From NCBI GenBank assembly GCA_000146045.2, contig BK006948.2, positions 448,001-512,000 of the forward strand: a DNA stretch of 64,000 nucleotides, written 5' to 3'. The translations under genes and the position numbers were made by a program. This stretch comes from TPA_inf: Saccharomyces. Its lineage: Eukaryota. Under the pieces are notes generated by a model. It was not told where the DNA came from. It searched no databases and was given only the letters and a program-made list of their open reading frames with translations. This document shows positions 5,768-33,750 of the stretch, piece after piece (the first letter of the stretch is position 1; each line of letters opens with the position of its first letter).

Positions 5768-7795
5768 ATGGACTACGAGGATAATCTAGAAGCACCTGTT
5801 TGGGACGAACTAAATCATGAGGGAGATAAAACTCAGAGCCTCGTTTCAAATTCAATTGAATCAATTGGTCAAATATCTACAAATGAAGAAAGAAAAGACA
5901 ATGAGCTTTTAGAGACCACAGCTTCATTTGCGGACAAGATAGACTTGGATAGTGCGCCAGAATGGAAAGACCCTGGTTTGTCGGTGGCTGGTAATCCGCA
6001 ACTAGAGGAGCATGACAATTCCAAAGCTGACGATCTTATTAATTCTTTAGCCCCTGAACAGGATCCGATTGCTGATCTCAAGAATAGCACTACACAATTT
6101 ATTGCAACAAGAGAATCCGGTGGCGCATTGTTCACTGGAAACGCCAACTCTCCCTTAGTTTTTGACGATACGATATACGATGCTAACACTTCACCAAATA
6201 CTTCAAAAAGCATCTCTGGAAGAAGATCCGGCAAACCACGAATTCTGTTTGATTCCGCCAGAGCTCAAAGAAACTCCAAACGCAACCATTCTCTGAAAGC
6301 GAAGAGAACAACTGCTTCCGATGATACCATCAAAACACCCTTTACTGATCCCTTAAAGAAAGCTGAAAAAGAGAATGAATTTGTTGAAGAGCCATTGGAC
6401 GATAGGAATGAAAGGAGAGAAAACAATGAGGGCAAGTTCACAGCTTCTGTTGAAAAAAATATCCTTGAGCAAGTGGACAGGCCTTTATACAATCTTCCTC
6501 AGACAGGTGCTAATATTTCAAGTCCTGCTGAGGTCGAGGAAAACTCAGAAAAGTTTGGAAAAACCAAGATTGGCTCAAAGGTGCCACCAACCGAAAAGGC
6601 TGTGGCTTTCAAAGTTGAAGTTAAAGACCCGGTCAAAGTAGGAGAGCTAACATCCATTCATGTGGAGTATACTGTAATCAGTGAATCATCATTACTTGAG
6701 CTAAAATATGCACAGGTAAGCAGGCGTTACAGAGATTTCAGGTGGCTATATCGTCAATTGCAGAACAACCATTGGGGTAAAGTAATACCACCACCACCAG
6801 AGAAGCAATCAGTAGGCAGTTTTAAGGAAAATTTCATTGAAAATAGAAGATTTCAAATGGAAAGCATGTTAAAAAAAATATGTCAAGATCCGGTTCTACA
6901 AAAGGACAAAGATTTTCTACTCTTTTTGACAAGTGATGACTTTAGTTCAGAGTCTAAAAAAAGGGCATTTTTGACTGGATCTGGCGCTATTAATGATAGC
7001 AACGATCTGTCAGAAGTCCGGATAAGTGAGATACAACTACTAGGTGCAGAGGATGCTGCCGAGGTCTTAAAAAATGGGGGTATCGACGCGGAATCGCACA
7101 AGGGATTTATGAGTATATCGTTTTCATCACTGCCCAAGTACAACGAGGCAGATGAATTCTTTATCGAAAAGAAACAAAAGATTGATGAACTGGAAGATAA
7201 TTTAAAAAAATTGAGCAAATCTTTGGAAATGGTCGACACCTCAAGAAACACCCTGGCTGCATCAACAGAAGAATTCTCTAGTATGGTAGAAACCCTAGCG
7301 TCTTTGAACGTGAGTGAACCTAATTCGGAACTGCTGAATAATTTTGCTGATGTTCATAAAAGCATAAAAAGCTCTCTTGAGAGAAGCTCTTTGCAAGAGA
7401 CTTTGACGATGGGTGTGATGCTGGACGACTATATTAGGTCATTGGCAAGCGTAAAAGCAATTTTCAATCAGAGATCCAAATTGGGGTATTTCTTGGTAGT
7501 AATAGAAAATGACATGAATAAGAAACACTCACAATTGGGCAAATTGGGTCAAAATATTCATTCAGAAAAATTCAGAGAAATGAGAAAGGAATTTCAAACA
7601 TTGGAGAGAAGGTATAACCTTACAAAAAAACAATGGCAAGCGGTAGGAGATAAAATAAAAGATGAATTCCAAGGTTTCTCTACTGATAAAATTCGGGAAT
7701 TCCGAAACGGCATGGAAATATCACTAGAAGCGGCCATTGAATCTCAAAAAGAATGCATCGAGCTTTGGGAGACATTCTACCAAACCAATCTTTAG
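5768..7795 (+). CDS. VPS5: Sorting nexin Vps5 (retromer subunit): PX domain followed by a C-terminal BAR/coiled-coil region.
   Basis: 675-aa ORF. PX-domain motif ...AQVSRRYRDFRWLYRQL...PPPPEK... seen in the translation; the C-terminal half is predicted coiled coil. Confidence 0.9.
   Translation: MDYEDNLEAPVWDELNHEGDKTQSLVSNSIESIGQISTNEERKDNELLETTASFADKIDLDSAPEWKDPGLSVAGNPQLEEHDNSKADDLINSLAPEQDPIADLKNSTTQFIATRESGGALFTGNANSPLVFDDTIYDANTSPNTSKSISGRRSGKPRILFDSARAQRNSKRNHSLKAKRTTASDDTIKTPFTDPLKKAEKENEFVEEPLDDRNERRENNEGKFTASVEKNILEQVDRPLYNLPQTGANISSPAEVEENSEKFGKTKIGSKVPPTEKAVAFKVEVKDPVKVGELTSIHVEYTVISESSLLELKYAQVSRRYRDFRWLYRQLQNNHWGKVIPPPPEKQSVGSFKENFIENRRFQMESMLKKICQDPVLQKDKDFLLFLTSDDFSSESKKRAFLTGSGAINDSNDLSEVRISEIQLLGAEDAAEVLKNGGIDAESHKGFMSISFSSLPKYNEADEFFIEKKQKIDELEDNLKKLSKSLEMVDTSRNTLAASTEEFSSMVETLASLNVSEPNSELLNNFADVHKSIKSSLERSSLQETLTMGVMLDDYIRSLASVKAIFNQRSKLGYFLVVIENDMNKKHSQLGKLGQNIHSEKFREMRKEFQTLERRYNLTKKQWQAVGDKIKDEFQGFSTDKIREFRNGMEISLEAAIESQKECIELWETFYQTNL
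5869..6213 (-). CDS. VAM10: Small antisense ORF nested in the 5' region of VPS5 (VAM10-like; 114 aa if started at the second Met).
   Basis: ORF 5869..6234 (-) is 121 aa; the internal Met at residue 8 gives a 114-aa product, matching the size I recall for VAM10/YOR068C. Recognised by position only. Confidence 0.35.
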   Translation of the reverse strand: MLFEVFGEVLASYIVSSKTKGELAFPVNNAPPDSLVAINCVVLFLRSAIGSCSGAKELIRSSALELSCSSSCGLPATDKPGSFHSGALSKSILSANEAVVSKSSLSFLSSFVDI

Positions 7796-7906
7796 ATGAT
7801 CTGTATACAATAACTTTATGTGTCACGTTCCTCAGGATTTATGAATTAGGAGATTTTTGTTTTATATTATTACATACTATACAGTAAGTAAAATGAATAG
7901 GTCCGT

Positions 7907-9820
7907 TTACAGCCAGTGCGACGTAGCATCTTTGTAAAGAGATTGCCAAATAAAGGCTTCGCTCAGAAGCATTTCAATATCCGTTTCAGTCCAGTCCTTT
8001 GTAGGAGGGTTCTGTAAGAAAGTTATAGTTTCTTGGAAATCCATTTCCATTAGCTGGTCACTCCACTTGATGAGGAATGCAGCACAAACAAACACATGAA
8101 ACTCATTCAACGAAGACTGTCTCATTTTTCCACTGTCTTCAACAGCATTGTTTGGTGTCATATTAGAAAGAGCTGTGGTGGGAGATTGGAAATCTTTTGT
8201 TGGTGTAACAAAACTTGCCACTCGAGGTTCTGTTGGAGTAACAGGAGGTTTAATGTCATTGGACGACATAGAATAAGAAGAAGTGACCTCTTGTGAAGTT
8301 TCAGATAAATATGTGTCCCACATCCTTATTACTGTACCCATTTGAAATTCTCTCATCAAAAGGCAATTCATCCATCTGAATGCAAACTGTATAAACTCCA
8401 CATGTTCATTTTGAAAATGGTTATATAGATCAGCATCAATTCGTTTCACTAGCTGACTCAAATTCTTCACTTGTCTTAATATGCCTGGTTGTCCGTGAAT
8501 ATAGTTATCGGTAATTTGTTCGAGCAATTTGGTAAGACACCAAAACGTGTCCGCTTCTAAATCTGTAATCTGTTCATCTACCATATAAGTAGAGGGGTCC
8601 TTTATCTCTACATCATCTATTTGTGAAGGCGGCAGATATTCGGTAAGAAAAGTCTCGAAAAATGGTGTAACTAAATCATTAATACCTTGCACATATCCGC
8701 TAGCAGGATGCCTGATTGCCCAAAGATATAGTATTCGTTGTAAACTGTTCTGTACGGATTTGAACTGGTAGAGGGGAATGTGGGGATTTGTTCTCGGTAT
8801 ATCTATCTCTATCTGATGCCAAGTTGGGATATCTCTTGAGTGCTGGTCAGAAAAGGTATGTTTCAGACTATCCCTATATTCTTTCCTCTTCCTTTGTAAG
8901 AAACCCTCCTGTCTCTTGGTGTTCACAGGCAAATAACCTATTAATAATTTCCAAACAACAGGCCTGTGTATTTTTGGGATACCATTCCAACTGATCTGGC
9001 GCAGATCCTGTTGATTTATGATTGTCTTATCTTTCAAAATATTGTCAAATTTAGAAATGCGCTGGATGATGGAGTTTAATTCTTGAACATCCCGTTCGTT
9101 TTCGATTTCCAACTGAGTTTTCTTGGAATCATTTGTTTTCTCTTTTTGCAGCTGTGGTAATTGAGGGTATGTAAAAGAGGAGGAAGAATTCCGTACTGCG
9201 GAGGTCCCCATATTCGAAATCGAATTGATGGAAGAAGAAGTGGATTTTCGCGACAAAGTTCTCGTTGGAGCTACAGGTGTACCAAATCCACCGTTAGTAA
9301 GTATAGGAATAGGCATATTATAATCGTCAATAACAGCACTCCAATCCTCATCTAAGTCTTTGAAATATCGATCACCCTTTTTGTTAGGCTCTGTACTGTT
9401 ACTGCAATTGTTGCCTACACTACCACTACTGCTATGGCGGGGTTGTTGATGGTGGTGATGACGCTGGTGATGCTGACGTAAGAGTAAAGCAGGCCGGGGA
9501 CTTTCGTTACTTGCAGTGCTTAGAGTGGGGTTTACATATCGTAGAGGTGAATAGGAATTCGAGGTACGTCTAGTGCTTGCTTGTTGCTTTGCCATAGCTT
9601 CAAAATTACCGTCACTGGTTCTCCGATCTCTATCTGCCGAGGAAGCATAACCCGAGGGTAAACTAGTAGATTCAGTAGTATTCATTTTGTATAACGATGG
9701 CTTCTTGGAGGAAGAAGCCGACGATATCCTCCAAGATTTCATCAGGGAAGTTACTAAACTGGAACTGTCCGAATTATGGTCCCGTTCGTGCATTTCCTTT
9801 GCAGCGGATCTCACACCCAT
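7907..9820 (-). CDS. GYP1: TBC-domain Rab GTPase-activating protein (Gyp1; cis-Golgi GAP for Ypt1).
   Basis: 637-aa ORF. TBC catalytic 'arginine finger' IEIDIPRT and 'glutamine finger' YVQGINDL motifs are seen in the translation. The N-terminal half is low complexity and His/Gln-rich. Confidence 0.9.
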   Translation of the reverse strand: MGVRSAAKEMHERDHNSDSSSLVTSLMKSWRISSASSSKKPSLYKMNTTESTSLPSGYASSADRDRRTSDGNFEAMAKQQASTRRTSNSYSPLRYVNPTLSTASNESPRPALLLRQHHQRHHHHQQPRHSSSGSVGNNCSNSTEPNKKGDRYFKDLDEDWSAVIDDYNMPIPILTNGGFGTPVAPTRTLSRKSTSSSINSISNMGTSAVRNSSSSFTYPQLPQLQKEKTNDSKKTQLEIENERDVQELNSIIQRISKFDNILKDKTIINQQDLRQISWNGIPKIHRPVVWKLLIGYLPVNTKRQEGFLQRKRKEYRDSLKHTFSDQHSRDIPTWHQIEIDIPRTNPHIPLYQFKSVQNSLQRILYLWAIRHPASGYVQGINDLVTPFFETFLTEYLPPSQIDDVEIKDPSTYMVDEQITDLEADTFWCLTKLLEQITDNYIHGQPGILRQVKNLSQLVKRIDADLYNHFQNEHVEFIQFAFRWMNCLLMREFQMGTVIRMWDTYLSETSQEVTSSYSMSSNDIKPPVTPTEPRVASFVTPTKDFQSPTTALSNMTPNNAVEDSGKMRQSSLNEFHVFVCAAFLIKWSDQLMEMDFQETITFLQNPPTKDWTETDIEMLLSEAFIWQSLYKDATSHWL

Positions 9821-11479
9821 TATATGGTTACTTTTATTAAGTGGTCGGTATTGGTGGTTGTTGTTGTTATTTGTATCCTTGATCTACTCTCCAATAATAG
9901 TTATAAAAATAGAAAGAAAACAAAACAATTAACAGCAGGACAAAAGCCAAACACTATAGCAATCTGGCTATATGATATGCAGAAAATAGTGATTACTGTG
10001 CTCTTTGCTGCATCATGCATCATATGTTTGGCATTCTGTCCTGTCAGATGAATGGGCGAAACAATTCGGGGAGCTTTGTTGCGACTTGGTACCCGGCAAG
10101 CCGCGACCTATATTTTGCATTAAACGAGTTCATCGTGGATTTATCGCCATGAGCCTTAGCTTATCAAGCCTCTCACAGACAATTAAGCAATGAAAAAGGT
10201 ATACCATCGGCGCAGAATGGTTAACTAGTGGGTTCATACTGCTGTGTTATAGATTGTTACCTAAGTGATCACCAAAAAAAAGTGCAAAAAGGAAAAAAAA
10301 ATAAGAGACAGGTAACTTCCACAAGCTTATTCTTCCAAAAATCAATCTTATCTTCATGCCAGCAATAGTTGCGTGCTGAGCTCAACAGTGCCCAACCCTT
10401 GTGCACCGTAGAATTGTAGAATACAAATACATAAATAAGTGTGTTCCCGAAGGACTAAGGAATGACGGCAGAGGAGTCTTGTGACCGCCCTGCTGCAAAA
10501 CTTGGCAAGGACAGAAATTAAGTAATAGATACGCACAACCTTGGAGCACCAAGAAATGGCTGCAAAAGTAAATCTATAGTATTTCAAGCTGAGATATGAT
10601 AATATGTTCAAAGGGCTAAAGTCTCATGAAACAGCGTCACTACAAGTCACATAAAGTTCGTACAGCAAGTCTATGCATGCTTTCCTCAAAAGAACTACCC
10701 AAATATAAACACATATACAAAAATTCAGATTTTACATTTCAGGTTTCCATAATATGTTAAAAGCTAGATCTTACATAGTGTCGGGAACAGGTCATTCTAA
10801 AAAAAGTAAAATAAAATAAAAGGGTTTCAAAGATCCATACTTCTCTACATTCTCTGACTTTTTAAAACTGTGTACTGGCGACCAATCGACAAATCTGCAA
10901 CCCCAGCTTCATAAGCTTTCTCTCCCACCAGCAAAGCCTGGACCTCCCTGGTTCTAATAATGAGCGACTGAAGTTTTCCAAAAGAAACCTTCACTAAACA
11001 TGTTATGCTCCTCAATCACGCGATGAAATAAAGGCCTATTTTTTGATCCAACGCCTTTGAAAATTTCCTTATGGCTGGGTGGGGTACCTACCATGAACAT
11101 GTTAAAGGTAAGTGGTGGCATATTATGGAGTTACGCCCGTATACCAGAGTAATAATGTTGCCGCCGGATAGGCATGGCGCCCCCACCGGATTCTCTTGCT
11201 ATATGGATGGCATAATTAGCTTATGAAAGGATTGGTAAGAATATGTCTTCTAGCAAGAAAATACTAAGAACCAATAGTTCCTTTTTTTATAAAATTATTG
11301 AGCCATACACAATAATGCCGATATTTGTCACCATAGACATACTTGACAGTAAAGTATTTGCAGCTGAGGATCGATCTGGTAGTATTCCCAAATTGTAAGA
11401 TCTGTACAGATTTTCAAATGAAGCGTTGAAGTTTCCTCTTTGTATATTTGAGATCTTCATTTTATCGGATTCTTTGTCA

Positions 11480-13276
11480 TCAGACAACTTGTTGAGTGGT
11501 ACTAAAGGAGTGCTTTTCATCATCCTTTTGGTGAACGATTTCAAATACGTTAGTGTTTTCTGAGCTAGTTTTGATCAATTCAGGTGATTCGTTATCAGAA
11601 CTCTCAGGTTTGTATTCGTGTCCAGTTGTGTAGCATTCGCCTAACGTGTAAGCACGGATTTCTTCCTCAGAAATTTCACTGTATGGAATCATGCCCTTCT
11701 TTCTCGCTTCTTCGTCGGTAAATGCACCATAGTAATCTTTGTCATCATGTCTAACAGTAATTTTGAATGGGAAGAAGACACATAGCCCCCAGTAAACGAA
11801 AAAAGAAATCAAAAAGGAGAAGAAAGAATCACCATAAAAGAATTTAACAATACCTGAGTCGTGGAAATAGTTATTGTTGACTTCCCAAGCGATACCAGGT
11901 AGACCGGGAGCCATACCACACACCCAGGCAACGATAGCTCTCCAGTTGACACCCTTGGTAAAATAGTATTCACCCTTTAGAATAAAGGCATTAGTAATGG
12001 AATATTGCCTCTTCCTGATCAGAAAGTTATCACAGATCATGACAGCAATAATAGGAGTCATGACAACACCGAAAGAACTCATGACAGTTAAGAAAGTAGA
12101 AGAAGAGTTGTAGAAGTTCCATGGCAAACAAGCCCAGGAGATACATGCGCAAAAAAGAGCACCTCTCTTGATATCGACGTATTTGGGCAACAAACCGGCC
12201 ATATCCATACCAGTGGCAAACCCACAGTTGGAGATGGTGGAGGACATTTGAGACATGGTAAAGCAAAGACCACAGAAGAAGGCACCTGCGCGAGCGCCTG
12301 CAGAATAGTTGTTTGTCAACCAATAATCGAATATATCCATGGGCATCCAAAATTGTTTACCGTATAATTTGTCGCAGGTGGAGGCACTAATGACACCGAA
12401 GATTGGGACCAAGGTTGCTGGGATTAGTAATGCACAGACGCTACCGGTCCAGATAGCCAAATTGGAGGAACCGAATCTTGAATAGTCACTTTGGTTGGTG
12501 GAACCTGGAGAAATGGAACCGAACCAGTATGAAATCATGTAAACCCAAGCCCATGCTCTTTTAGAACCAGTAACGGTAGATTTTGTGGAGGTAAACAATT
12601 CACCGACACCATGGGCATTCTTAGTCAAGTAAATCACTATACCCAGCATGGCAAAGCAAGTAGCTACACATGACCAAATTAAAAGGTAGTTCATATGGTA
12701 GGGTTTCATGAAATAGCAGAGCGCGGTGAGGACGTGGAAAATAATGAAGCCGACCAACTGCTTGGTGGTCATGGCAACACTTGGGGACAAAGTATTGGGC
12801 AGGTGCAGATAGTGGTGGGACCAGGAATCTAATATCATGTTGATAGATAGACCACCCAACCAAGCGTTGGAACCATAATTGACAATACTCATCAAAATTC
12901 TAATGATGATACCGAAGGCTGAACCGTAAATGCCAAAAACGAATCTTTGGGCCAAGGTGAAACCGATTTTCCAATCATAACCGGGGTAAGAGTTGGCCAT
13001 AGTGAAAATAATGGTCAAGACATTACCGAGAAGAAACGAAACAATGGTCTCTGGGTAACTTAGGCCGACACTTAGTGCAGCAGAACCACTCATCCATGTA
13101 CCTGCTGTAAAGGACACAGCGCCCCAGTACGCCAAATTAGACCAGAACCCCCATGTTTGATTTGCAGACTTGATAGGTTGCAAATCAGGGTTCCTCAGAA
13201 AATTCACGGCAGTCCTATTTTTGGCAGGAATTTCTAAATATCTCAAAAACTTAGAGACTATACTACTGAAGCTCAT
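11480..13276 (-). CDS. NRT1: NCS1/FUR-family permease (nicotinamide riboside transporter).
   Basis: 598-aa ORF with about 12 hydrophobic segments, recognised as NRT1 (YOR071C), a purine-cytosine-permease-like transporter. Confidence 0.85.
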   Translation of the reverse strand: MSFSSIVSKFLRYLEIPAKNRTAVNFLRNPDLQPIKSANQTWGFWSNLAYWGAVSFTAGTWMSGSAALSVGLSYPETIVSFLLGNVLTIIFTMANSYPGYDWKIGFTLAQRFVFGIYGSAFGIIIRILMSIVNYGSNAWLGGLSINMILDSWSHHYLHLPNTLSPSVAMTTKQLVGFIIFHVLTALCYFMKPYHMNYLLIWSCVATCFAMLGIVIYLTKNAHGVGELFTSTKSTVTGSKRAWAWVYMISYWFGSISPGSTNQSDYSRFGSSNLAIWTGSVCALLIPATLVPIFGVISASTCDKLYGKQFWMPMDIFDYWLTNNYSAGARAGAFFCGLCFTMSQMSSTISNCGFATGMDMAGLLPKYVDIKRGALFCACISWACLPWNFYNSSSTFLTVMSSFGVVMTPIIAVMICDNFLIRKRQYSITNAFILKGEYYFTKGVNWRAIVAWVCGMAPGLPGIAWEVNNNYFHDSGIVKFFYGDSFFSFLISFFVYWGLCVFFPFKITVRHDDKDYYGAFTDEEARKKGMIPYSEISEEEIRAYTLGECYTTGHEYKPESSDNESPELIKTSSENTNVFEIVHQKDDEKHSFSTTQQVV

Positions 13277-13501
13277 GATGATACAGGTGCTGAAGTCCTT
13301 TTTTTGATAGTTATAATGGGGATATCAGTACAATAAAGAATAATATAAATTCTGCAATAGGAAATAATATAGGTAATTGTTCTTGATAATTCTGGAGTTT
13401 ATAAGATTTTAACTCTATTTATGAGAATAGAGAAGGAAAATTAAAACTACAATAGCGAATGCAAATTTTTTTCCCCGAAGAACAAATAGCGGTAGCAACA
13501 C

Positions 13502-13816
13502 ATGCTGACGAAAGTTGTGTTCCTCTTTTTTTGGAGCAGGTCTGACTCAACTAAAAAGCTAGCTGCATGCAACCACGCTACATTGGCACACTATATCCTG
13601 ACGCCCGCGCTATACTCTGACGCCTGCGCTATATATTCTGACGTCTACTCCATAACTATTATAGTAGTGGCCACTGTTGTTCGTAACCCGGCGCGGTGTT
13701 CGCTCCGAGCACGAAAATTCTGTCGTTTATTCTCTTCCTTCTTCCAGTTCCATTACTTAAAGGAGCTGTTTTATTTCATTCGAAAGCCCGATGACAAATT
13801 CTCCTCTTTCATATAA
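13502..13816 (+). CDS. Short ORF inside the GC-rich island (corresponds in position to the dubious ORF YOR072W). Probably not protein-coding.
   Basis: 104-codon ORF with no recognisable domain. It overlaps a tandem repeat, and the compositionally atypical surroundings yield ORFs in several frames. Confidence 0.15.
   Translation: MLTKVVFLFFWSRSDSTKKLAACNHATLAHYILTPALYSDACAIYSDVYSITIIVVATVVRNPARCSLRARKFCRLFSSFFQFHYLKELFYFIRKPDDKFSSFI
13586..13646. repeat. Three tandem copies of a ~19-bp unit, (c/t)gcgCTATA(c/t)(a/t)(c/t)TCTGACG(c/t)C.
   Basis: Direct reading: ...caCTATATCCTGACGCC cgcgCTATACTCTGACGCC tgcgCTATATATTCTGACGTC... Confidence 0.7.
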
Positions 13817-16449
13817 ATTAATAAGGCGGTCAGCAGGAAACTCCTATTGCCAACCGTCTTGCGAACCGACCGGTCGCTGCGCGCGATCATGCGTCCACGC
13901 GCTTCTGTGGCGACGGACGACTACAGCAAGACATTACTCTGGTCATTTACGCCTGGCGCCCAGAATGTACAAGCGCAGACGGCCAGATCATATGATGAAA
14001 CGGAATAGTCCCAGCTATACCGGTGATCACAAGACGTAGTTACATAGATGCCTTGGCGCCGACACGATATTTCTTGTCGTTCTGTGCCAGTAATTCCTTT
14101 TCTTCTCGACTATGCCTCTAAGACGTCAGTCTTGGAAGCATAGTCTTCGTAAAAAAATTTTTTTTTTGAGGTTTTTGCTTCCATTTCTTTAGACTGAACT
14201 AATTTATTTTTTTTATTATTATTCAGTAATTTTTATATATTTATTTATGGACTTATTGAGGTGCTTTGGGGGTGATGACGTCCCCAGTGAGGCCCCCAGG
14301 GTAGTGGACCGCACCTAACTTCCCATTCATGATGTGATTACGCATTTTAATCTTGTCTATATGTTCTACAATGATGGCGTCAGTGCCAATGCCGTTCGCA
14401 TCTATGAGGGAGATGAACTCGCTCTCGGCCGTTGGGTTTGAGGCGGTGCCGTAGTGTCCGCCTTCATTCCGGCTTCGCGGTGTCTACGAGGCATTCATTT
14501 TATGTCGCGGCAACTACTTGATATTTTCCACCAGGCACAAGGAGAAACATGGAGAAATTATATATAGAGAACTATGAGTCCTGAGGCGGCCGTTCAGTAG
14601 CTCAGATTGCCAGGGTTAAAAATTGCTCCTTGGCATCCTATGTGCTGCATACTAAAAAATTTTTAGCCACGTAGTTGTATACTTTTGTTTCCGGGGATGA
14701 GAAATTAGCCCCAGGTCCCAGACTTACAACAAGGTAGATAGGGGGGCGCACCTTGTCGTCATGAGACCCATTTCGTAGAAACTTGAATTTGTTGTTGTTA
14801 CTTCTGTTTTCAAGTAGGAGTAACGAGGCCGCGTACAATTTGCCAGTGGATTTGTCGCCTGCAGCAGCGGCCGCGACGCGACGGGTTGATCCAATTTTGT
14901 GCTTGCTTCTTCAACTGAATATTTTGAGTCCACTGCATGTGGAAAACAGAGTTTTCAGTCAGTCTTGTATGTATATTATTCTCTTTAGCTCCAGAATTTC
15001 TGCTGTGCTTAGTAACTTCTTGCCGTTGAGCTGATTTTAGTAGTATAATTTTTTTGCAACTCTACTGATATCAAGAGCAGTGATATGTGCTTTAATGTTG
15101 GCATTTCTTTCAAGCCAATCACCTTCTACCATTGGTCACGGTCTCAGTATATTTGTCGTAAATATTAGTACTCTAGTCTGGTCAGAGAAGTGGCCTTTCT
15201 CCCACCAAAACGTTGTTGTTCTGTCTTTTTTCTTATTATTTACTATTTATTGGATTTATCAAAAATTCCTCAGGAACAAGATTTAATATTCTTGAAAATC
15301 CTGTATGTCATAAATCATGAGCTTGGAAATTGACACGAAATATCGGATGGCACTACTTGATGATCGTTTTTATCACTACCGCTGTACTTTAATTTCATAA
15401 TTTATTTGGTGACATTTCTCTTGAAGATCTGGCAAGATGTACACGGGGAGCTCCTTCAACTGTTAAAAATATTTTTAAAAGTAAAGACGTCACCATACTT
15501 TTTCACCATAAGAACAATTACTGGTCCAGATTAAGAACGGTTGGAGTAAGAGCCAATTATCATTCATTGACTGGTATTTCCTTTTGAACTATATTATCAT
15601 ATAATAGGTAAGAAGATGGCAAAAAGGAAGGAGAAACAGTGGTCTGATGTGATAGGGAAGTAAATGTCAACAAATACCTAACAGTACTATCTGATCGAAC
15701 AAAGAAATTCCACCAAACTGTCAGTAAATTTATTTAATGAGCAGCAAGGACATAGTGCACAACTAGCACTCTACTTCGATTGGGTTATTGAGGAAGAGGA
15801 TAGTATGCCCGGAATTTTCAAGCATTTACATGATTATGGTTTCATTGGGGTGCAAGAAGACCCAGCATGATTAGATTGCTATGTACTCATTATATAATAT
15901 ATCTCCGATGAATATATTTCCGAAAGTTTACTGAAGGCGACCTTGGATAAACCATAGTTTTACGGCAAATACACCATATCACTATTTTCTTTCTATATAG
16001 CTTTGCTAAGGCTTTTTTTAGTGACCGAGACAAAGAAGAAAATTTTCCATAAATGAAAGACCATTGTTTATTCCGAATCAAGTTTTCCGAAGAATTGTTG
16101 TATTACACAGTCCAGAGACAGCAGAATCTTTCAGAAATTTTAATACTGTTGTGACAGCATCTTGTCTATTATTTATTGGATACGCAAAACTCATTTTTTT
16201 AAAATTTTTTTTATAATTTCCTTTAAATAAAAAGGTTAAAGCTGGGAAAAATGCATCTAAATAATAAACTAATGATTTAGTTTCCCTCATTTAAAATATC
16301 TAAGAAGGACAGAACTTTGTTTGGGGTACTTACCCTTGAGTATTTTTAGCGATTATTCTTGGAGTTCTCAGCCAGAAGATTAAAAGAATATATGTTACTG
16401 AATGCAGTGTGATACTCAAGACTAAGTAGTCTTAACAACAAGTTAACAA

Positions 16450-16551
16450 GGGCGTGTGGTCTAGTGGTATGATTCTCGCTTTGGGCGACTTCCTGACTAA
16501 CAGGAAGACAAAGCATGCGAGAGGCCCTGGGTTCAATTCCCAGCTCGCCCC
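16450..16551 (+). tRNA. tRNA-Pro (anticodon UGG) with a ~30-nt intron located 3' of the anticodon.
   Basis: GGGCGTGTGGTCTAGTGGTATGATTCTCGCTTTGGG[cgacttcctgactaacaggaagacaaagca]TGCGAGAGGCCCTGGGTTCAATTCCCAGCTCGCCCC. This matches the yeast tRNA-Pro(UGG) sequence with an A box, a B box (GGTTCAATTCC) and an intron at about 16487-16516. Confidence 0.9.
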
Positions 16552-16770
16552 TTTTATTTTTGATTATTTATTTCCTATTGGTCGGGTAACAGATTTTTTT
16601 TATTTTTTTCAAGGCCCTTTTGTTTTGTAAACAAAGAAATTTCACAAAGTGAGCGTCTACTAATATTGATAATGCCATTTCCACATTACAACTACTGCTA
16701 GGCGCAGGGTTATATTACTTACACACGCATATATATGTTTAATTGGGTATAGAGGGGTTATTGTTTGACC

Positions 16771-18543
16771 ATGCCGAAGAGAAAAATTGCTCCTAACAAG
16801 GAAAGCAGCAGGCGTACGGTCTCCCACGATGATTTAACCCCACAAATACAAGAATTTCAAAACCTAATGGATCTCGAATCGCAAAAAGTGGAAAACATCA
16901 GACAGTCGTATTCGAGGCAAAACTCCCTGCTGGCCAAGGATAACTCCATATTAAAAATTAAAGTTAATAGCTTGGAAAAAAAAATAAGCCAGCTGGTACA
17001 AGAAAACGTGACTCTACGATCTAAAACCTCTATAAGCGAAGCTATCTACAGGGAACGGTTAAGTAATCAACTACAAGTCATTGAAAACGGTATTATTCAA
17101 AGATTTGACGAAATTTTTTATATGTTTGAGAACGTACGTAAAAACGAAAATTTGCCCAGTTCGAGCTTAAGAACAATGTTGAAGAGAACGAGTTCCAGGT
17201 CAAGATCATGCTCATTGTCATCACCCACATACTCAAAAAGTTACACTAGGTTATCAAATCACGAGAATAACCTGTCGCATGAATCAAGTTTTAACAAGGA
17301 CGATGGTCCAGATCTTGAGCCTAAGGCTAAAAAAAGGAAGAGTTCTAGGCGGCAATCTATGTTTGTATCCACGAGTTTAGAACCTGAAGACGAAACCGGT
17401 GAAAACGAACCCATGATGGAAAATTCCTCTGTAGAGGTACCGGCAGAATCACACGAGTCTGCGCAAGTGGAGGAAACAATAGATGCCTTAAACCCTGAAG
17501 AGGAAAATAGCGATTCTGTCAGTAATTTTACCAATTCAATTATAGAATACTCCATACCAGAGGAGAATCCGACAGAACCCGAGCATTCATCTTCTAAACT
17601 AGAAATATTCAATGACAGTACAAATATGCTAAGTACAGTGCCGTCAAATCCTTTGCCGTTGCCTTTACCAGGCCCATCCGCAACTTTACCTACTACCACT
17701 AGCGATGCTTCAACGGTCTATCCTTCATCAAGTTCTTCTACTAATTCTCATCCAAAGACCAAAATTAAGCATTCCATGAAGCCGCCTAGGATAGAACTGA
17801 AGAAAAAGGTTATTGACGAAGTCATGCCCGTAAGTAACATGAGCAGCAACAGCGAAATATCATTTACGAGAACTAGAAGAACTCGTGGTAAAGCTGTAGA
17901 TTACACTTTGCCTTCTTTAAGAGCCAAAATGAGGAGGCCTTCAGAAAAACTTGTGGATGCTACTACTGTGATTGATATACATGATCTACAGGTTTCCAAG
18001 AGAAATCGGGAAACTTCACATAAAAGGAAAAGTTTATCCCAAGATTCAATACCCGACGAACCGCAATTGAGAGAAGTCGTCGTCTCAAAGGATTATGGAA
18101 CTCCAAAAGGGAAAAAAACGGAAGATGAAATACACGAGGATACCGCTCATCTAATGACCACTTCCAACAACAACAGCAACAACAAAAACGAAAAAAAACT
18201 AACTAGCAACAATAGCCCTAAAAAATCGTCGCCTTTACTTGACATTACAAATAAATCGGAGAATAAGAAAAAGTCAACAAGAACTAAAAAATTGTTCAAA
18301 AATGCAATTGTCAATAATTTATCTGATGAAAATTCTACTACGCGACCCTCCAAGTCGTCAAAGGGAACCAGTAATAATAACAACAATTACAACAATTTCG
18401 ACAATAACAATTCAAACATTAATAATGTTAATAATAAATCTGTTAGCTTTAGACTAAATGAAGATGATTTAGCAGTATTTGATTTATTTGGAAATGGTAA
18501 GGCAGTGAAACATCAACCAAAAACATATCGCACCAAAAAATGA
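16771..18543 (+). CDS. SGO1: Shugoshin (Sgo1), with an N-terminal coiled coil and a C-terminal basic region.
   Basis: The ORF begins ...MPKRKIAPNKESSRR... and gives 590 aa from the Met at 16771. The N-terminal heptad-rich region (NSLEKKISQLVQENVTLR) and position match YOR073W. Confidence 0.8.
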   Translation: MPKRKIAPNKESSRRTVSHDDLTPQIQEFQNLMDLESQKVENIRQSYSRQNSLLAKDNSILKIKVNSLEKKISQLVQENVTLRSKTSISEAIYRERLSNQLQVIENGIIQRFDEIFYMFENVRKNENLPSSSLRTMLKRTSSRSRSCSLSSPTYSKSYTRLSNHENNLSHESSFNKDDGPDLEPKAKKRKSSRRQSMFVSTSLEPEDETGENEPMMENSSVEVPAESHESAQVEETIDALNPEEENSDSVSNFTNSIIEYSIPEENPTEPEHSSSKLEIFNDSTNMLSTVPSNPLPLPLPGPSATLPTTTSDASTVYPSSSSSTNSHPKTKIKHSMKPPRIELKKKVIDEVMPVSNMSSNSEISFTRTRRTRGKAVDYTLPSLRAKMRRPSEKLVDATTVIDIHDLQVSKRNRETSHKRKSLSQDSIPDEPQLREVVVSKDYGTPKGKKTEDEIHEDTAHLMTTSNNNSNNKNEKKLTSNNSPKKSSPLLDITNKSENKKKSTRTKKLFKNAIVNNLSDENSTTRPSKSSKGTSNNNNNYNNFDNNNSNINNVNNKSVSFRLNEDDLAVFDLFGNGKAVKHQPKTYRTKK

Positions 18544-18674
18544 TATATAGTCTTTTTGCCCTGGTGTTCCTTAATAATTTCTATATTTTTGCATAATAAA
18601 CCATTGTATTATATACATTCGATTTTGTGTGTATATACGTAAGTACATGATTTTGTTTCTCCTCGTGCTGTCAA

Positions 18675-19589
18675 TTATACACTCATTTTCATTTGAATTC
18701 TTGGATGAGGATTATAATCTTCAATTTCAAAGTCTGTCAACTTGAAATCATCAATGTCTTTAACGTCCCTTTTAATCTTTAGTTTCGGGAATGGTCTTGG
18801 ATTTCTGGTGATTTGTTCTTTCAAGGCATCAATGTGGTCTTTATAAACATGTGCATCCCCCAAAGTATGAATGAACTCACCTGGCTCCATGTCGACAACT
18901 TTAGCAATCATTCTAGTCAACAAAGCATATGATGCAATGTTAAATGGTACTCCCAACCCCATATCACAAGAACGTTGGTACAATAAGCATGAAAGGCGGG
19001 GCTTACCGGATCCTTCTCCTTCTTTGGGGAAACTGACATAGAACTGTGAAAAAATATGGCATGGCGGCAAAGCCATTTTGTCAAAATCAGCTGGGTTCCA
19101 GGCACTCATAATGATTCTTCTATCGTAGGGATTTGTCTTTAGTTTATGTATAACCTGTTTCAATTGATCAATACCTTGTCCAGTATAGTCGTCATCGCAC
19201 GTCTTGTATTTAGCACCAAAATGCCTCCATTGAAATCCGTAAACGGGCCCCAGATCTCCTACTTTCCTATCTTTGAACCCCATCTTATCTAAATATTCAC
19301 GAGATCCATTACCGTCCCAAATCTTAACACCTTGCTCAGACAATAGGTTAGCGTCTGTATCACCGGCCAAAAACCACAATAGTTCAAGTATGATACCTCT
19401 AGTAAAAACCTTCTTGGTCGTTAGTAGTGGGAAGGTATCATCACGTAAACTAAAACGCAGCTGGGGTGGTGCAAAAAGACTCAACGTACCAGTGCCTGTT
19501 CTATCTGGCCTAAATTCACCTTCATCAATGATTCTTTTGCATAGATCAAGATATTGCTCTTCTTCTTTGTTTTTTCCGTCCATAGTCAT
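18675..19589 (-). CDS. CDC21: Thymidylate synthase.
   Basis: 304-aa ORF with the catalytic-Cys motif [13 protein letters not shown] and [10 protein letters not shown], unmistakably thymidylate synthase. Confidence 0.95.
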
Positions 19590-19704
19590 CCTGTACCGTT
19601 CTGTTATGAAGCTCTCTCCTTGATACTTTATTGTTTGATATACACAGTCACTTACAAGTTTAGAAAATACAATTACAGCTATGCTATAGTAAATATTTCA
19701 GGAA

Positions 19705-19747
19705 ACGCGTCAATTAAGGTCTTTTTCATTTTTTCTATTTAACGCGT
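19705..19747. promoter_or_regulatory. Two ACGCGT (MluI cell-cycle box, MCB) elements 116 and 153 bp upstream of the CDC21 ATG.
   Basis: ACGCGT at 19705-19710 and 19742-19747, seen directly. CDC21 is a classical MBF/MCB-regulated gene. Confidence 0.7.
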
Positions 19748-20211
19748 CACCAAATATTAAGTTTGAGAAAGAAGGTCAAAAAAGCAACACCTCTTCCAAC
19801 CTGTTCAATGCGGTCCTACGTTGAGGACACAAAGCTAATCTCTTTGAGGTAGCTGCAGTATAATGACGGGACCTTTGCATATTTTATTGGCCTTTTCCAA
19901 TGAAACTAATTTTTTAATTGAATCTCAATCCCGTCCTTTACAGACGAGAGGGGAAAGAAGCTTGTTCGCATGATCCATCCTGGAATATGGATACATGTCA
20001 TGTAATGATAAATCATTCCTACCTTTGCTGGTATCTTTCTGAAAAGGGCACATTTAATTAAGAACTGCCAACAAGGAAAGATCTCCGTTACCCTACCCAA
20101 CTTGTGAGCTCAGATGAATGAGAATAACTAGAATACATACACATACGTCTAGTATCATTTCCCCCGGTGCTGGGAAATCACCCGTAAAAGCAGTGAAGAG
20201 CTTATTAACTC

Positions 20212-31450: not shown

Positions 31451-31532
31451 GCAAAACAAGGCAAAGAACCTGATGGAAGAAAGCACAACCAGATATTAAT
31501 AGCAACGAAAAATAGTAGAGACATTGAAGAAT

Positions 31533-32420
31533 ATGAGTTTGAGAACGCCGAAGAGAAGCAGGACTAGCGATGAACAAGAACAAGAACAAGAACAAGAGCA
31601 GGTACAGAACCCAGATACACATGTAAACAACGAGCATCAGCAGCGACCTGGGCCAACCACTCTATTGAGCACGCCAGTACGTCTCAAAAATGGCTTTGGA
31701 ACACCATCGCCGCCGTCACCACCAGGCATAACGAAAAGCATCACTAAATCGAGAAGAAGGCCGTCGACAACGAGTCTTCAGGGTATATTCATGTCGCCCG
31801 TCAATAAGCGTCGTGTCGGCATAACCGCACATGGACGTGTATATGACCATAACGACGACGGACACGAAAGTGAGAGTGAGGACGACGAAAATGAAGAAGA
31901 AAATGAAAATCAAAAGAAGTACGACGGACACGTTAGTATGCCTTTGTTGCCACCGACAACGCCCAAGTCAAGACGGTCGGAGGTGTTTCTGTCGCCGTCG
32001 CCGCGTTTGAGGTCACCTCCGACGGCTGCGCGTCGGTCTACGGGCGAGCGGCCCATCCGCGAAATATCACATACTTTGCGCACCAGGCTCAATTACGCGT
32101 TAGTCAAGCTGCAAAATGGATGGACGGACAAGACACTTCCCGAGCTGGAGACGGAGCTTGCTCCAGCAGTGCAGACGCCGCCACGTCGCTATCACAACAG
32201 ATTTCCAGATAGTGCAGACGCGGGTACTTCCGCGCATACAGCGTTTCTTCAGGCGCTCGGAGGCCACCCACCACGGGAGGAGGCCACGGCTGTCGAAACA
32301 CTGATGCTATTGTCGTCGCCTACCAAGAAGCAACAACACCGACCCGTGCCGGCGACATCTGCTGGAGAACCCACGGACGAAACGGAGCCCGAGTCGGATA
32401 CCGAAGTGGAGACGTCTTAA
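31533..32420 (+). CDS. WHI5: Whi5, the repressor of G1/S (SBF) transcription.
   Basis: MSLRTPKRSRTSDEQEQEQ..., 295 aa from the Met at 31533, with many S/T-P sites (TPKSRRS, SPSPRLRSPP). Recognised as YOR083W. Confidence 0.85.
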   Translation: MSLRTPKRSRTSDEQEQEQEQEQVQNPDTHVNNEHQQRPGPTTLLSTPVRLKNGFGTPSPPSPPGITKSITKSRRRPSTTSLQGIFMSPVNKRRVGITAHGRVYDHNDDGHESESEDDENEEENENQKKYDGHVSMPLLPPTTPKSRRSEVFLSPSPRLRSPPTAARRSTGERPIREISHTLRTRLNYALVKLQNGWTDKTLPELETELAPAVQTPPRRYHNRFPDSADAGTSAHTAFLQALGGHPPREEATAVETLMLLSSPTKKQQHRPVPATSAGEPTDETEPESDTEVETS

Positions 32421-32586
32421 TGTGGTAGTACGAGTTTTTTCTCCGCAATCTCGGAGTTAGTGCAGCCGCGCCCGCTGCTGCACCCTTTAGCATATATATA
32501 AAGTGCGTAATGTGCGTGCTAAAAAAGCTCACTAGTGCGTACTCTGCTTATCTCTGCGTATCCGCCGATCAACATCCGCGGCTAAA

Positions 32587-33750
32587 ATGGAACAGAACAG
32601 GTTCAAGAAAGAAACGAAAACTTGTAGCGCTAGCTGGCCGCGCGCACCGCAGTCGACGCTGTGTGCGACAGATCGCCTCGAGCTCACATACGATGTGTAC
32701 ACTAGCGCAGAGCGGCAACGCCGCTCTCGCACTGCCACTAGGCTTAACCTTGTGTTTTTGCACGGCAGCGGCATGAGTAAGGTGGTATGGGAGTACTATT
32801 TGCCGCGTCTGGTAGCCGCCGATGCGGAGGGCAATTATGCCATCGACAAGGTTTTGTTGATCGACCAGGTTAACCACGGTGATTCTGCGGTACGCAACCG
32901 CGGCAGACTCGGCACCAATTTCAACTGGATCGACGGGGCCCGCGACGTGCTCAAGATTGCCACATGCGAGTTGGGCAGTATTGACAGCCACCCGGCACTA
33001 AACGTAGTCATCGGCCACTCGATGGGCGGGTTCCAGGCTCTTGCGTGTGACGTCCTGCAGCCCAATCTGTTTCATTTGCTCATCTTGATCGAGCCTGTAG
33101 TAATCACACGGAAAGCCATCGGCGCCGGGAGGCCAGGGCTTCCGCCCGATTCTCCGCAGATCCCAGAAAATCTTTATAACTCCCTACGTTTAAAGACGTG
33201 CGACCATTTCGCTAACGAGTCCGAATATGTAAAATATATGAGGAACGGTTCCTTTTTTACCAATGCGCACAGCCAAATCCTGCAAAACATCATCGATTTT
33301 GAGAGGACAAAAGCCTCTGGAGACGATGAAGATGGTGGACCCGTTCGCACGAAGATGGAGCAGGCTCAAAATCTCCTCTGCTACATGAACATGCAGACTT
33401 TTGCGCCTTTCCTGATCAGCAATGTGAAGTTTGTGAGGAAGCGGACTATCCACATTGTGGGCGCGCGCTCCAACTGGTGTCCTCCGCAAAATCAGCTGTT
33501 TTTGCAGAAAACTCTACAGAACTACCATCTCGATGTCATTCCCGGCGGCTCCCACTTGGTCAACGTTGAGGCTCCGGACCTGGTGATCGAGAGGATTAAT
33601 CACCACATCCACGAGTTTGTCCTTACCTCCCCGCTGCAGTCCTCACACATTCCGCAATTGACCCTTGAAGAAAGAGCGGTGATGTTTGACCGGGCTTTCG
33701 ACTCGTTCAAGAATGAAGCTTTGGTTAAAACGACTAAACAAAAACTGTAA
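32587..33750 (+). CDS. LPX1: Peroxisomal alpha/beta-hydrolase lipase with a C-terminal PTS1.
   Basis: 387-aa ORF. The nucleophile motif GHSMGG and the C-terminal tripeptide -QKL (a PTS1) are seen in the translation. Confidence 0.9.
   Translation: MEQNRFKKETKTCSASWPRAPQSTLCATDRLELTYDVYTSAERQRRSRTATRLNLVFLHGSGMSKVVWEYYLPRLVAADAEGNYAIDKVLLIDQVNHGDSAVRNRGRLGTNFNWIDGARDVLKIATCELGSIDSHPALNVVIGHSMGGFQALACDVLQPNLFHLLILIEPVVITRKAIGAGRPGLPPDSPQIPENLYNSLRLKTCDHFANESEYVKYMRNGSFFTNAHSQILQNIIDFERTKASGDDEDGGPVRTKMEQAQNLLCYMNMQTFAPFLISNVKFVRKRTIHIVGARSNWCPPQNQLFLQKTLQNYHLDVIPGGSHLVNVEAPDLVIERINHHIHEFVLTSPLQSSHIPQLTLEERAVMFDRAFDSFKNEALVKTTKQKL

Follow-up and report, generated by a model that had tools for sequence, protein, structure and literature searches.

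The window analysed here, a stretch of 64,000 nucleotides of Saccharomyces cerevisiae chromosome XV (64 kb; contig BK006948.2, positions 448,001 to 512,000), contains the transporter gene NRT1 and an intron-containing tRNA-Pro gene, and the gap between them includes an island (13500-15000) that had been singled out as GC-rich and poor in ORFs. The following features, given in window coordinates, were recognised at this locus.

10847..11433, minus strand: psiERF2, remains of a copy of ERF2 (YLR246W), which codes for a palmitoyltransferase; it lies downstream of NRT1 and in the same chromosome XII-derived insert
11480..13276, minus strand: NRT1 (YOR071C), a 598-aa ORF, the one gene of the duplicated block that remains functional
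13277..13470, minus strand: proximal promoter and 5' UTR of NRT1, related by descent to the proximal promoter of THI7
13471..13727, minus strand: NRT1-lineage-specific segment of about 257 bp, with most of the dubious ORF YOR072W inside it
13502-13816: YOR072W, 104 aa, the longest ORF in the NRT1-tRNA gap
13728..14019, minus strand: relic of the spacer between TOP3 and THI7 and of the distal upstream region of THI7, today the distal upstream region of NRT1
13791-14039: YOR072W-A, 82 aa, the second of the longest ORFs in the gap
14020..15441, minus strand: psiTOP3, a disabled 5'-truncated TOP3 copy (codons from about 192 or 217 to 656) containing two of the three GC-rich patches
15536..15745, no strand assigned: repeat fragment between psiTOP3 and psiBNA5
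15746..15951, plus strand: psiBNA5, remains of the 3' end of BNA5, the gene for kynureninase (residues from about 385 to 452 of 453)
16450..16551, plus strand: intron-containing tRNA-Pro(UGG) (Rfam tRNA, 48.8 bits), a conserved landmark immediately beside the insert

The island contains 45.2% GC, as compared with 36% in the intergenic and 40% in the coding DNA of the same window. The predicted elevation therefore stands, but the predicted level of 55-60% does not hold for the island as a whole, since 100-bp windows reach at least 55% in only three patches of 100-180 bp each (approximately 13810-13990, 14360-14520 and 14810-14910). Among the 1250 windows of 1.5 kb in the 64 kb, 13500-15000 ranks 50th in GC content; the WHI5-LPX1 region (31524-33750, 52-54% GC) is much richer, and the entire NRT1-tRNA gap contains 38.7% GC. 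The GC-rich strings and the NotI site quoted in the original prediction are present in the stretch, and the ORF list contains no ORF longer than 104 codons in the gap. In S. paradoxus, stops and frameshifts interrupt both YOR072W and YOR072W-A, in agreement with the prediction that the stretch encodes no protein and that its short overlapping ORFs arise incidentally from its GC-rich sequence.

The origin of psiTOP3 is evident from comparison with the chromosome XII locus (L001), where the parental TOP3 gene is intact and codes for a 656-aa protein with Toprim and Topoisom_bac domains. Residues 246-625 of this protein match window positions 15298-14116 in tblastn (sum E 1e-44), and positions 8066-9519 of L001 match 15390-13901 in blastn with 64% identity over 1548 nt (E 6e-147). 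In a pairwise alignment psiTOP3 and TOP3 share 68.2% nucleotide identity over 1290 nt and 54% amino-acid identity, and the relic carries 25 indels (23 of them frameshifting) and 10 stops in the projected frame. At its 3' end it reaches the site of the TOP3 stop codon, a position that is kept; its 5' end lies at about 15441, the first 184-216 or so TOP3 codons and the promoter being gone. Taken alone, the relic gives weak matches to Pfam Topoisom_bac and to PDB Top3 alpha/beta on the GIGTDA motif (E about 1e-3), and a Pfam search with ten stop-free relic translations yielded a single weak Topoisom_bac match (E 0.0014). A word-indexed protein search with a stitched 220-aa relic translation returned nothing at E <= 1e-3; this was treated as a false negative because the TOP3 protein, when compared directly, gives the tblastn match above.

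These pseudogenes are already known, and the finding is an ordinary one. The TOP3, BNA5 and ERF2 relics are listed by Lafontaine & Dujon (2010, BMC Genomics 11:260, Table S1) as SACE0Op5 (chrXV 462079-463441, C, corresponding to window 14079-15441), SACE0Op6 (chrXV 463754-463960, W) and SACE0Op4 (chrXV 458847-459433, C), respectively, and for the TOP3 relic the same authors counted 14 stops and 14 frameshifts. The island is the same object as the yeast gene relics, or non-processed duplicated pseudogenes, of Lafontaine et al. (2004, Gene 335:1) and Lafontaine & Dujon (2010); the SACE0Op5 entry describes, as found here, a truncated intergenic copy of YLR234W (TOP3) on chromosome XV with stops and frameshifts, derived from a segmental duplication. 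psiTOP3 was not retroposed: the TOP3-THI7 spacer, the THI7 gene that is now NRT1 and a fragment of BNA5 were copied along with it, and all keep the order and orientation of the parental locus. Four attributes of a duplicated pseudogene are found, namely homology to the parent, disabling mutations, co-copied flanks and neighbours, and neutral evolution. With a probability of about 95%, the island is the remnant of a non-processed segmental duplication from chromosome XII that has no role as a gene.

The composition of the island follows from this descent. TOP3 contains 48.6% GC (50.2% in its 3' part) and the relic 41.2%, with 226 GC-to-AT and 114 AT-to-GC differences of the relic from TOP3. The GC richness is inherited from TOP3 and is eroding by AT-biased mutation. 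The dead copy is still conspicuous because TOP3 is unusually GC-rich for yeast, while its GC-rich but ORF-poor appearance and the chance short ORFs result from the loss of the psiTOP3 reading frame. Neither foreign DNA nor a novel RNA is needed to explain the odd composition of the island. A structured non-coding RNA gene, which was among the original suggestions, is extremely improbable. GC-rich patches do occur amid AT-rich surroundings, and the plus strand of 14790-14920 folds slightly better than its shuffles (z = -1.57); however, the folds of both strands of all GC patches span z-scores from -1.57 to +0.91, with seven of the eight between -0.0 and +0.9. Rfam, searched at E up to 1, gave no matches in 13277-16449 and only the tRNA and a chance snoRNA-like match (E 0.36) in 9000-20000, and the sequence, which evolves neutrally, is fully accounted for by its homology to TOP3 coding DNA. 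Counts from a scan for bacterial-type promoters and terminators, a type of scan not relevant to yeast, equalled the shuffled expectation.

The other parts of the insert are also degenerate copies. psiBNA5 is detected by tblastn (E 8e-8) and by blastn (L001 3401-3608 against window 15950-15746, 71%), and its frame contains two stops. The best PDB match of the psiERF2 translation is yeast Erf2 (8hfc_A, E 0.007) over the DHHC motif region, and a Pfam search of this relic gave no matches. Searches of the insert flanks for the 5' third of TOP3, EST1 and FAR10 found none of them. The fragment at 15536-15745 interrupts the ancestral BNA5/TOP3 junction in S. cerevisiae; positions 15540-15645 match repeats upstream of THI72 (L002 4173-4277 and L008 7222-7326) as well as L003 9350-9471. 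This fragment is probably a degenerate Ty1/Ty2 delta LTR, whose 5' end it seems to resemble. The tRNA-Pro gene was missed by ARAGORN and detected by Rfam and by an exact-string search, which also located its 5' exon in front of SGO1 in each of the five other species of Saccharomyces. The abutment of the insert on this tRNA and the probable delta-LTR fragment recall the Ty/LTR-rich tRNA-proximal rearrangement zones of S. cerevisiae, although the island itself is not transposon sequence.

In the chromosome XII locus the order and orientation of BNA5-EST1-TOP3-THI7 are those of psiBNA5-psiTOP3-NRT1. Among six Saccharomyces species, the block is present at tRNA-Pro in S. cerevisiae and S. paradoxus only; S. 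mikatae, S. kudriavzevii, S. arboricola and S. uvarum have the arrangement GYP1-tRNAPro-SGO1 with a gap of just 1.15-1.5 kb. Both psiBNA5 and psiTOP3 are found also at the THI72 loci of S. cerevisiae and S. mikatae, and the BNA5/TOP3 junction (L001 positions of about 3719 and 7971) is identical in S. mikatae THI72 and S. paradoxus NRT1. The TOP3 relics of the NRT1 and THI72 loci have 55-59 identical derived changes in common, the chance expectation being approximately 22-25. At informative sites the relics match S. cerevisiae TOP3 over that of S. uvarum by 148:67 (p = 3e-8), and the transporter tree places NRT1, THI72 and S. cerevisiae THI7 together with 100% bootstrap, the S. uvarum copies lying apart. 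The NRT1 protein shares 99% identity with proteins named Nrt1p, 85% with Thi7p and 82% with Thi72p. A whole-genome-duplication ohnologue block was rejected as an explanation, since the GYP1-SGO1 interval is without the block in four Saccharomyces species and the tree also speaks against it.

These comparisons bear on the suggestion that the island is a relic of foreign or transposed DNA. Transposed DNA, in the form of a segmental duplication from chromosome XII, proved to be the closest of the options offered, and the foreign part of the suggestion fails on the roughly 2:1 preference of the relics for S. cerevisiae over S. uvarum TOP3. GC-rich DNA acquired by horizontal transfer or introgression would fit the atypical composition and a site occupied in two species only, but this origin is highly unlikely: a parent for each part of the insert exists on chromosome XII of the same genome, the relics carry TOP3 substitutions of the S. 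cerevisiae lineage and not those of S. uvarum, and NRT1 is nested within Saccharomyces THI7 genes.

Under the preferred reading of a chromosome XII duplication, a block that spanned at least BNA5-EST1-TOP3-THI7, and probably extended to ERF2, would have been copied in the S. cerevisiae lineage after the split from S. uvarum. One deletion of approximately 4.25 kb may then have joined the 3' end of BNA5 to TOP3 codon 185, removing both promoters and the entire EST1. Such a single deletion would have disabled three redundant duplicates (BNA5, EST1 and TOP3) at once, with selection presumably retaining the THI7 copy only, and the truncated unit could subsequently have spread to give rise to both the THI72 and the NRT1 loci. 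We infer the order of these events, as well as the position of the NRT1 block before the ancestor of S. cerevisiae and S. paradoxus. In the 2010 catalogue, the TOP3 relics at NRT1 and THI72 were regarded as unrelated, with no common pattern of disabling mutations; unlike there, the two are found here to share the BNA5/TOP3 deletion junction and an excess of derived changes, which suggests a datable common origin of NRT1 and THI72. The locus offers a worked example of a segmental duplication in which NRT1 was kept and the TOP3, BNA5 and ERF2 copies decayed to relics; its importance beyond annotation is small. The NRT1 lineage appears to be older than the present location of NRT1.

Between S. 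cerevisiae and S. paradoxus, the TOP3-derived part of the island has diverged at the neutral rate: identity in psiTOP3 is 78.5%, as compared with 76.3% at four-fold degenerate sites and 78.7% in other intergenic DNA. The absence of conservation above this rate, which had been named as evidence against a functional element, thus holds for the TOP3-derived 14023-15390 but not for the NRT1-proximal part (13471-14022), where identity between the two species is 87-89%. Conservation within psiTOP3 is uneven, 14743-14942 and 14315-14569 being 84-89% identical and the adjoining segments 61-77%, so that parts of it may have been exapted, for instance as a transcript or a distal regulatory site. In that case the two GC patches would have acquired a role as distal regulatory DNA or as a non-coding transcription unit, with NRT1 or the adjacent tRNA/SGO1 region as the proposed target of control. 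Their identity exceeds both that of the relic overall and the neutral benchmarks of 76-79%, and by our own arithmetic the heterogeneity among 100-bp windows is greater than the binomial expectation. We nevertheless consider such recruitment improbable, as the occurrence of the locus in two species only gives low statistical power, the distance of 1.0-1.7 kb between the patches and the NRT1 ATG is large for an upstream activating sequence in yeast, the low-identity windows coincide with poorly aligning indels and AT-rich runs, and both an RNA-structure signal and an Rfam match are absent.

Positions 9809-11792 of L001 match window 13470-11485 in blastn (82%), a match that spans the coding sequence and about 190 bp upstream, and L001 9649-9793 matches 13862-13728 (68%). 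Judged from these alignments, 13277-14019 descends from the TOP3-THI7 spacer and the THI7 promoter. THI7, THI72 and NRT1 are paralogues of the NCS1 family (PF02133), and the NRT1 upstream region keeps blocks common to those of THI7 and THI72, which in a six-sequence alignment include GCCACAGAAGCGCG and ...GCCTTATTAATTTATATGGAAGAGGAGA. In contrast to its two paralogues, NRT1 alone has the 257-bp upstream insert with three TGACGCC-containing repeats; this segment, 13471-13727, is gapped in every THI7/THI72 row of the alignment. Its identity between S. cerevisiae and S. paradoxus is 89.0%, as against 78.7% in other intergenic DNA. In 13728-14019, which contains the first GC-rich patch (about 13830-13925), the value is 87.6%, rising to 94-98% across 13777-13923. 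The 750 bp adjacent to NRT1 is thus probably the NRT1 promoter, composed of the old THI7 upstream region and the 257-bp NRT1-specific insert.

The short motifs named in the original prediction were located: a TATAAAT at 13812, within the spacer-derived segment; a tandem repeat of period 19 (13591-13634), scored as 2.3 copies by TRF, the third copy being degenerate; and recurrent TGACG(C/T)C, with six sites at 13599, 13618, 13639, 14122 (minus strand), 14276 and 14376 (minus strand). The island holds six of the 15 TGACGYC sites of the 64-kb window, for the whole of which 7.0 are expected. The copies of a single tandem repeat account for three of the six, and at least the site at 14122 is inherited TOP3 coding sequence (...SKTDV... 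codons). The interpretation of these motifs as CRE-like is unsupported because a motif scan of 13277-14100 found no full CRE TGACGTCA; the island sites are TGACGCC/TGACGTC half-sites, of which the three inside the tandem repeat are conserved in S. paradoxus. A CRE/ATF-regulated promoter, with a conserved palindromic site of this kind upstream of the gene, was accordingly discarded. The motif scan of the NRT1 upstream region also found no Sum1/Ndt80 MSE, Pho4, Mac1, Reb1 or Abf1 sites, and its single Gcn4 site (13543) is not conserved in S. paradoxus.

The three tandem units of 19-21 bp with TGACG(C/T)C at 13591-13650 are nearly identical in S. paradoxus. It is conceivable, though rather doubtful, that dead DNA was partly recycled here, the promoter of a thiamine transporter having been rewired into the NAD-precursor-responsive NRT1 promoter by the 257-bp insert with its three conserved TGACGCC repeats, possibly together with the two slowly evolving GC patches. 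If so, the relic would be a record of how a neofunctionalised paralogue gained new regulation. The dubious ORFs YOR072W and YOR072W-A lie in this upstream region beside pseudogene debris, and should not be treated as genes or de novo gene candidates outside that context. Deletions of yor072w turn up in lists from hyper-recombination and loss-of-heterozygosity screens; the simplest reading of these entries would be an effect on the neighbouring genes SGO1 or NRT1.

The interval 13500-15000 has a GC content of 45.2%, compared with averages of 36.0% for intergenic DNA and 39.7% for long ORFs in the window, and by GC it ranks 50 of 1250 (top 4%) among 1.5-kb windows. The island is real, but its size was overstated: the original prediction gave long stretches of 55-60% GC within ~1.5 kb, while values of at least 55% in 100-bp windows are confined to three patches, at ~13810-13990, ~14360-14520 and ~14810-14910. 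The lack of any ORF longer than 104 codons was borne out, and the quoted GC-rich strings, NotI site, TGACGYC sites and tandem repeat are each found in the sequence. By far the highest GC content in the 64-kb window, well above that of this island, is at 31524-33750, where two adjoining ORFs (298 aa, 53.7% GC; 387 aa, 52.2% GC) are separated by a 166-bp spacer (49%); these ORFs sit where WHI5 and LPX1 are presumably located.

The minus-strand stop-free translations of the island are protein-like. One gives a weak match to the Pfam family Topoisom_bac (E 0.0014), and its only PDB matches at E <0.02 are human topoisomerase III alpha and beta, covering the conserved ...LMxxxGIGTDAxIxxHIxxI... motif. 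A stitched 220-aa translation has the runs NNNKFKF, GSHDDK and NGIGTDA in common with yeast Top3. This translation found no match in a word-indexed search of 5.8 billion proteins, and TOP3 was therefore reached via synteny: the NRT1 paralogue THI7 (protein P0002) sits in the chrXII parental locus L001, which carries BNA5, EST1, TOP3 (7419-9389) and THI7 (10001-11797). Residues 246-625 of the TOP3 protein match 15298-14116 of the window on the minus strand (sum E 1e-44), the match being spread over three reading frames and interrupted by stops. At the DNA level, L001 8066-9519 aligns with 15390-13901 (64% over 1548 nt), L001 9649-9793 with 13862-13728, and L001 9809-11792 with 13470-11485 (82%). 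These alignments, together with a 5' limit of the TOP3 copy at ~15441, assign the segments upstream of NRT1 as follows, listed with their neighbours.

11480-13276, minus strand, NRT1
13277-13470, old THI7 proximal promoter, now that of NRT1
13728-14019, old TOP3-THI7 spacer
14020-15441, minus strand, dead, 5'-truncated TOP3 copy (psiTOP3)
16450-16551, tRNA-Pro with intron (Rfam)
16771, start of SGO1

In a global pairwise alignment the TOP3-derived part is 68.2% identical to TOP3 over 1290 nt, with 25 indels, 23 of which shift the frame. The projected TOP3 frame contains 10 stops, amino-acid identity is 54%, and the parental stop codon is retained at ~14020. Among the three origins originally proposed, a relic of transposed DNA comes nearest, the island being an ordinary duplicated pseudogene plus a promoter remnant. 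A structured RNA is very unlikely: the island has no Rfam match and folds no more stably than expected.

The parent accounts for the composition. TOP3 has 48.6% GC (3' part 50.2%, GC3 53.7%), and the TOP3-THI7 spacer includes a 59% GC stretch. The relic now has 41.2% GC, less than its parent in most 90-nt windows, and its differences from TOP3 comprise 226 GC-to-AT versus 114 AT-to-GC changes. From these figures, the island is GC inherited from the parent and now eroding, with the reading frame destroyed. Stop codons are few in GC-rich non-coding sequence, hence the short chance ORFs. The dubious ORFs YOR072W and YOR072W-A are each interrupted in S. paradoxus, with no third-codon-position concentration of substitutions against that species. 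The yor072w deletion is among the hits of genome-wide hyper-recombination and loss-of-heterozygosity screens, the latter listing it next to its neighbour SGO1; a neighbouring-gene effect seems likely, because the ORF (13502-13816) is not conserved.

Between S. cerevisiae and S. paradoxus, psiTOP3 (14023-15390) is 78.5% identical, compared with 76.3% at four-fold degenerate sites of nine neighbouring genes and 78.7% in seven other intergenic regions, so it evolves neutrally. Its GC-rich segments 14315-14569 and 14743-14942 reach 84-89%, versus 61-80% in the rest, which is more than uniform neutrality predicts; chance, mild constraint or an effect of the alignment might each account for it. The region upstream of NRT1 (13471-14022) is clearly more conserved than these benchmarks, with 87-89% identity and 94-98% at 13777-13923, from which we infer a working NRT1 promoter. 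It has blocks that also occur upstream of THI7 and THI72; the 257-bp segment 13471-13727 occurs in the NRT1 lineage only and holds three almost invariant repeat units with TGACG(C/T)C. A perfect Gcn4/AP-1 site, TGACTCA, lies within this insert at 13543-13549 (TGACCCA in S. paradoxus); full CRE, Sum1/Ndt80, Pho4 and Mac1 sites were not found in the upstream region.

Two further relics of the block were identified. The last ~70 codons of BNA5 lie at 15746-15951 on the plus strand (tblastn E 8e-8; blastn 71%), and in PDB the translation of ~11400-11100, downstream of NRT1, matches yeast Erf2 (8hfc) best, over the DHHC motif region. EST1, FAR10 and the TOP3 5' third were looked for in the flanks and are absent. 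The pseudogenes are already catalogued, with the following chrXV coordinates (Lafontaine & Dujon 2010, Table S1; PMC2876123).

458847-459433, C, SACE0Op4, parent YLR246W (ERF2)
462079-463441, C, SACE0Op5, parent YLR234W (TOP3); relative length 0.64, 14 stops, 14 frameshifts
463754-463960, W, SACE0Op6, parent YLR231C (BNA5)
701139-702125, C, SACE0Op7, parent YLR234W (TOP3), near THI72

Converted to window coordinates by a constant offset of 448,000, the entries agree with those found here. The ERF2 relic (10847-11433, minus strand) is directly downstream of NRT1, and the chrXII-derived insert may therefore once have run from BNA5 to ERF2, nearly all of it since deleted. By gene order, we take this span on chrXII to be ~30 kb. 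The relic of BNA5 (kynureninase, de novo NAD synthesis) adjoins a nicotinamide riboside transporter gene; this NAD connection is seemingly an accident of the order of genes on chrXII.

Comparison with the SGO1 loci of five other species gives the order GYP1-NRT1-relic-tRNAPro-SGO1 in S. paradoxus and GYP1-tRNAPro-SGO1, with a gap of just 1.15-1.5 kb, in S. mikatae, S. kudriavzevii, S. arboricola and S. uvarum. Homology of the window to the latter loci ends at ~10300 and restarts at ~16435, so the intervening ~6.1 kb is an insert beside tRNA-Pro that only S. cerevisiae and S. paradoxus have. Synteny in these four species contradicts an origin as a whole-genome-duplication block. Foreign DNA is contradicted by the relic sites and the transporter tree: at positions that distinguish S. 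cerevisiae TOP3 from that of S. uvarum, the relics side with S. cerevisiae by 148:67 (~2:1, p = 3e-8), and neighbour-joining unites NRT1, THI72 and S. cerevisiae THI7 with 100% bootstrap, leaving the S. uvarum genes (THI7 and two tandem copies) outside. Both results place the duplication within the genus.

At the THI72 loci of S. cerevisiae and S. mikatae, BNA5 and TOP3 relics lie directly upstream. TOP3 homology starts at L001 7971 (codon 185) both at the S. mikatae THI72 locus and at the S. paradoxus NRT1 locus. It follows the same BNA5 stretch (L001 to ~3719) in each, and the junction shows ATAG..TC microhomology. The NRT1 and THI72 relic lineages have 55-59 identical derived substitutions in common versus 22-25 by chance. 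The common junction and these substitutions indicate that a single deletion of ~4.25 kb, which took out EST1 and the 5' portions of BNA5 and TOP3, predates the NRT1/THI72 split. Because S. mikatae THI72 clusters with S. cerevisiae THI72, we infer that the NRT1 lineage arose before it reached its current location; the block would either have relocated to the tRNA-Pro site or have vanished from the other species.

In S. cerevisiae the BNA5-TOP3 junction is broken by a fragment (15536-15745) that recurs upstream of THI72 and is probably akin in sequence to a Ty1/Ty2 delta LTR at its 5' end. Members of this short repeat family lie upstream of NRT1 and THI72 (15536-15745; L003, an SGO1 locus, 9350-9471; the THI72 loci L002, 4172-5125, and L008, 6180-7544), and it may have been the recombination substrate that put the block beside tRNA-Pro. 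The S. uvarum tandem THI7-like genes (L010 6978-8774 and 10001-11797) are flanked by genes for a glutaredoxin and for a ribosomal protein of the S8 family, with no TOP3 or BNA5 relic detected at the locus. The pair clusters with S. uvarum THI7, which suggests a separate expansion of the transporter family.

The window belongs to S. cerevisiae chromosome XV: the Nrt1 it encodes shares 99% identity with proteins named Nrt1p, and its Sgo1 shares 100% with Sgo1 entries of S. cerevisiae. The intron-containing tRNA-Pro is present in 6/6 species (the window and L003-L007); ARAGORN in bacterial setting reports none of them, missing that at 16450-16551 although Rfam detects it. A small ORF, YOR072W-B, overlaps the tRNA-Pro gene (2024 paper).
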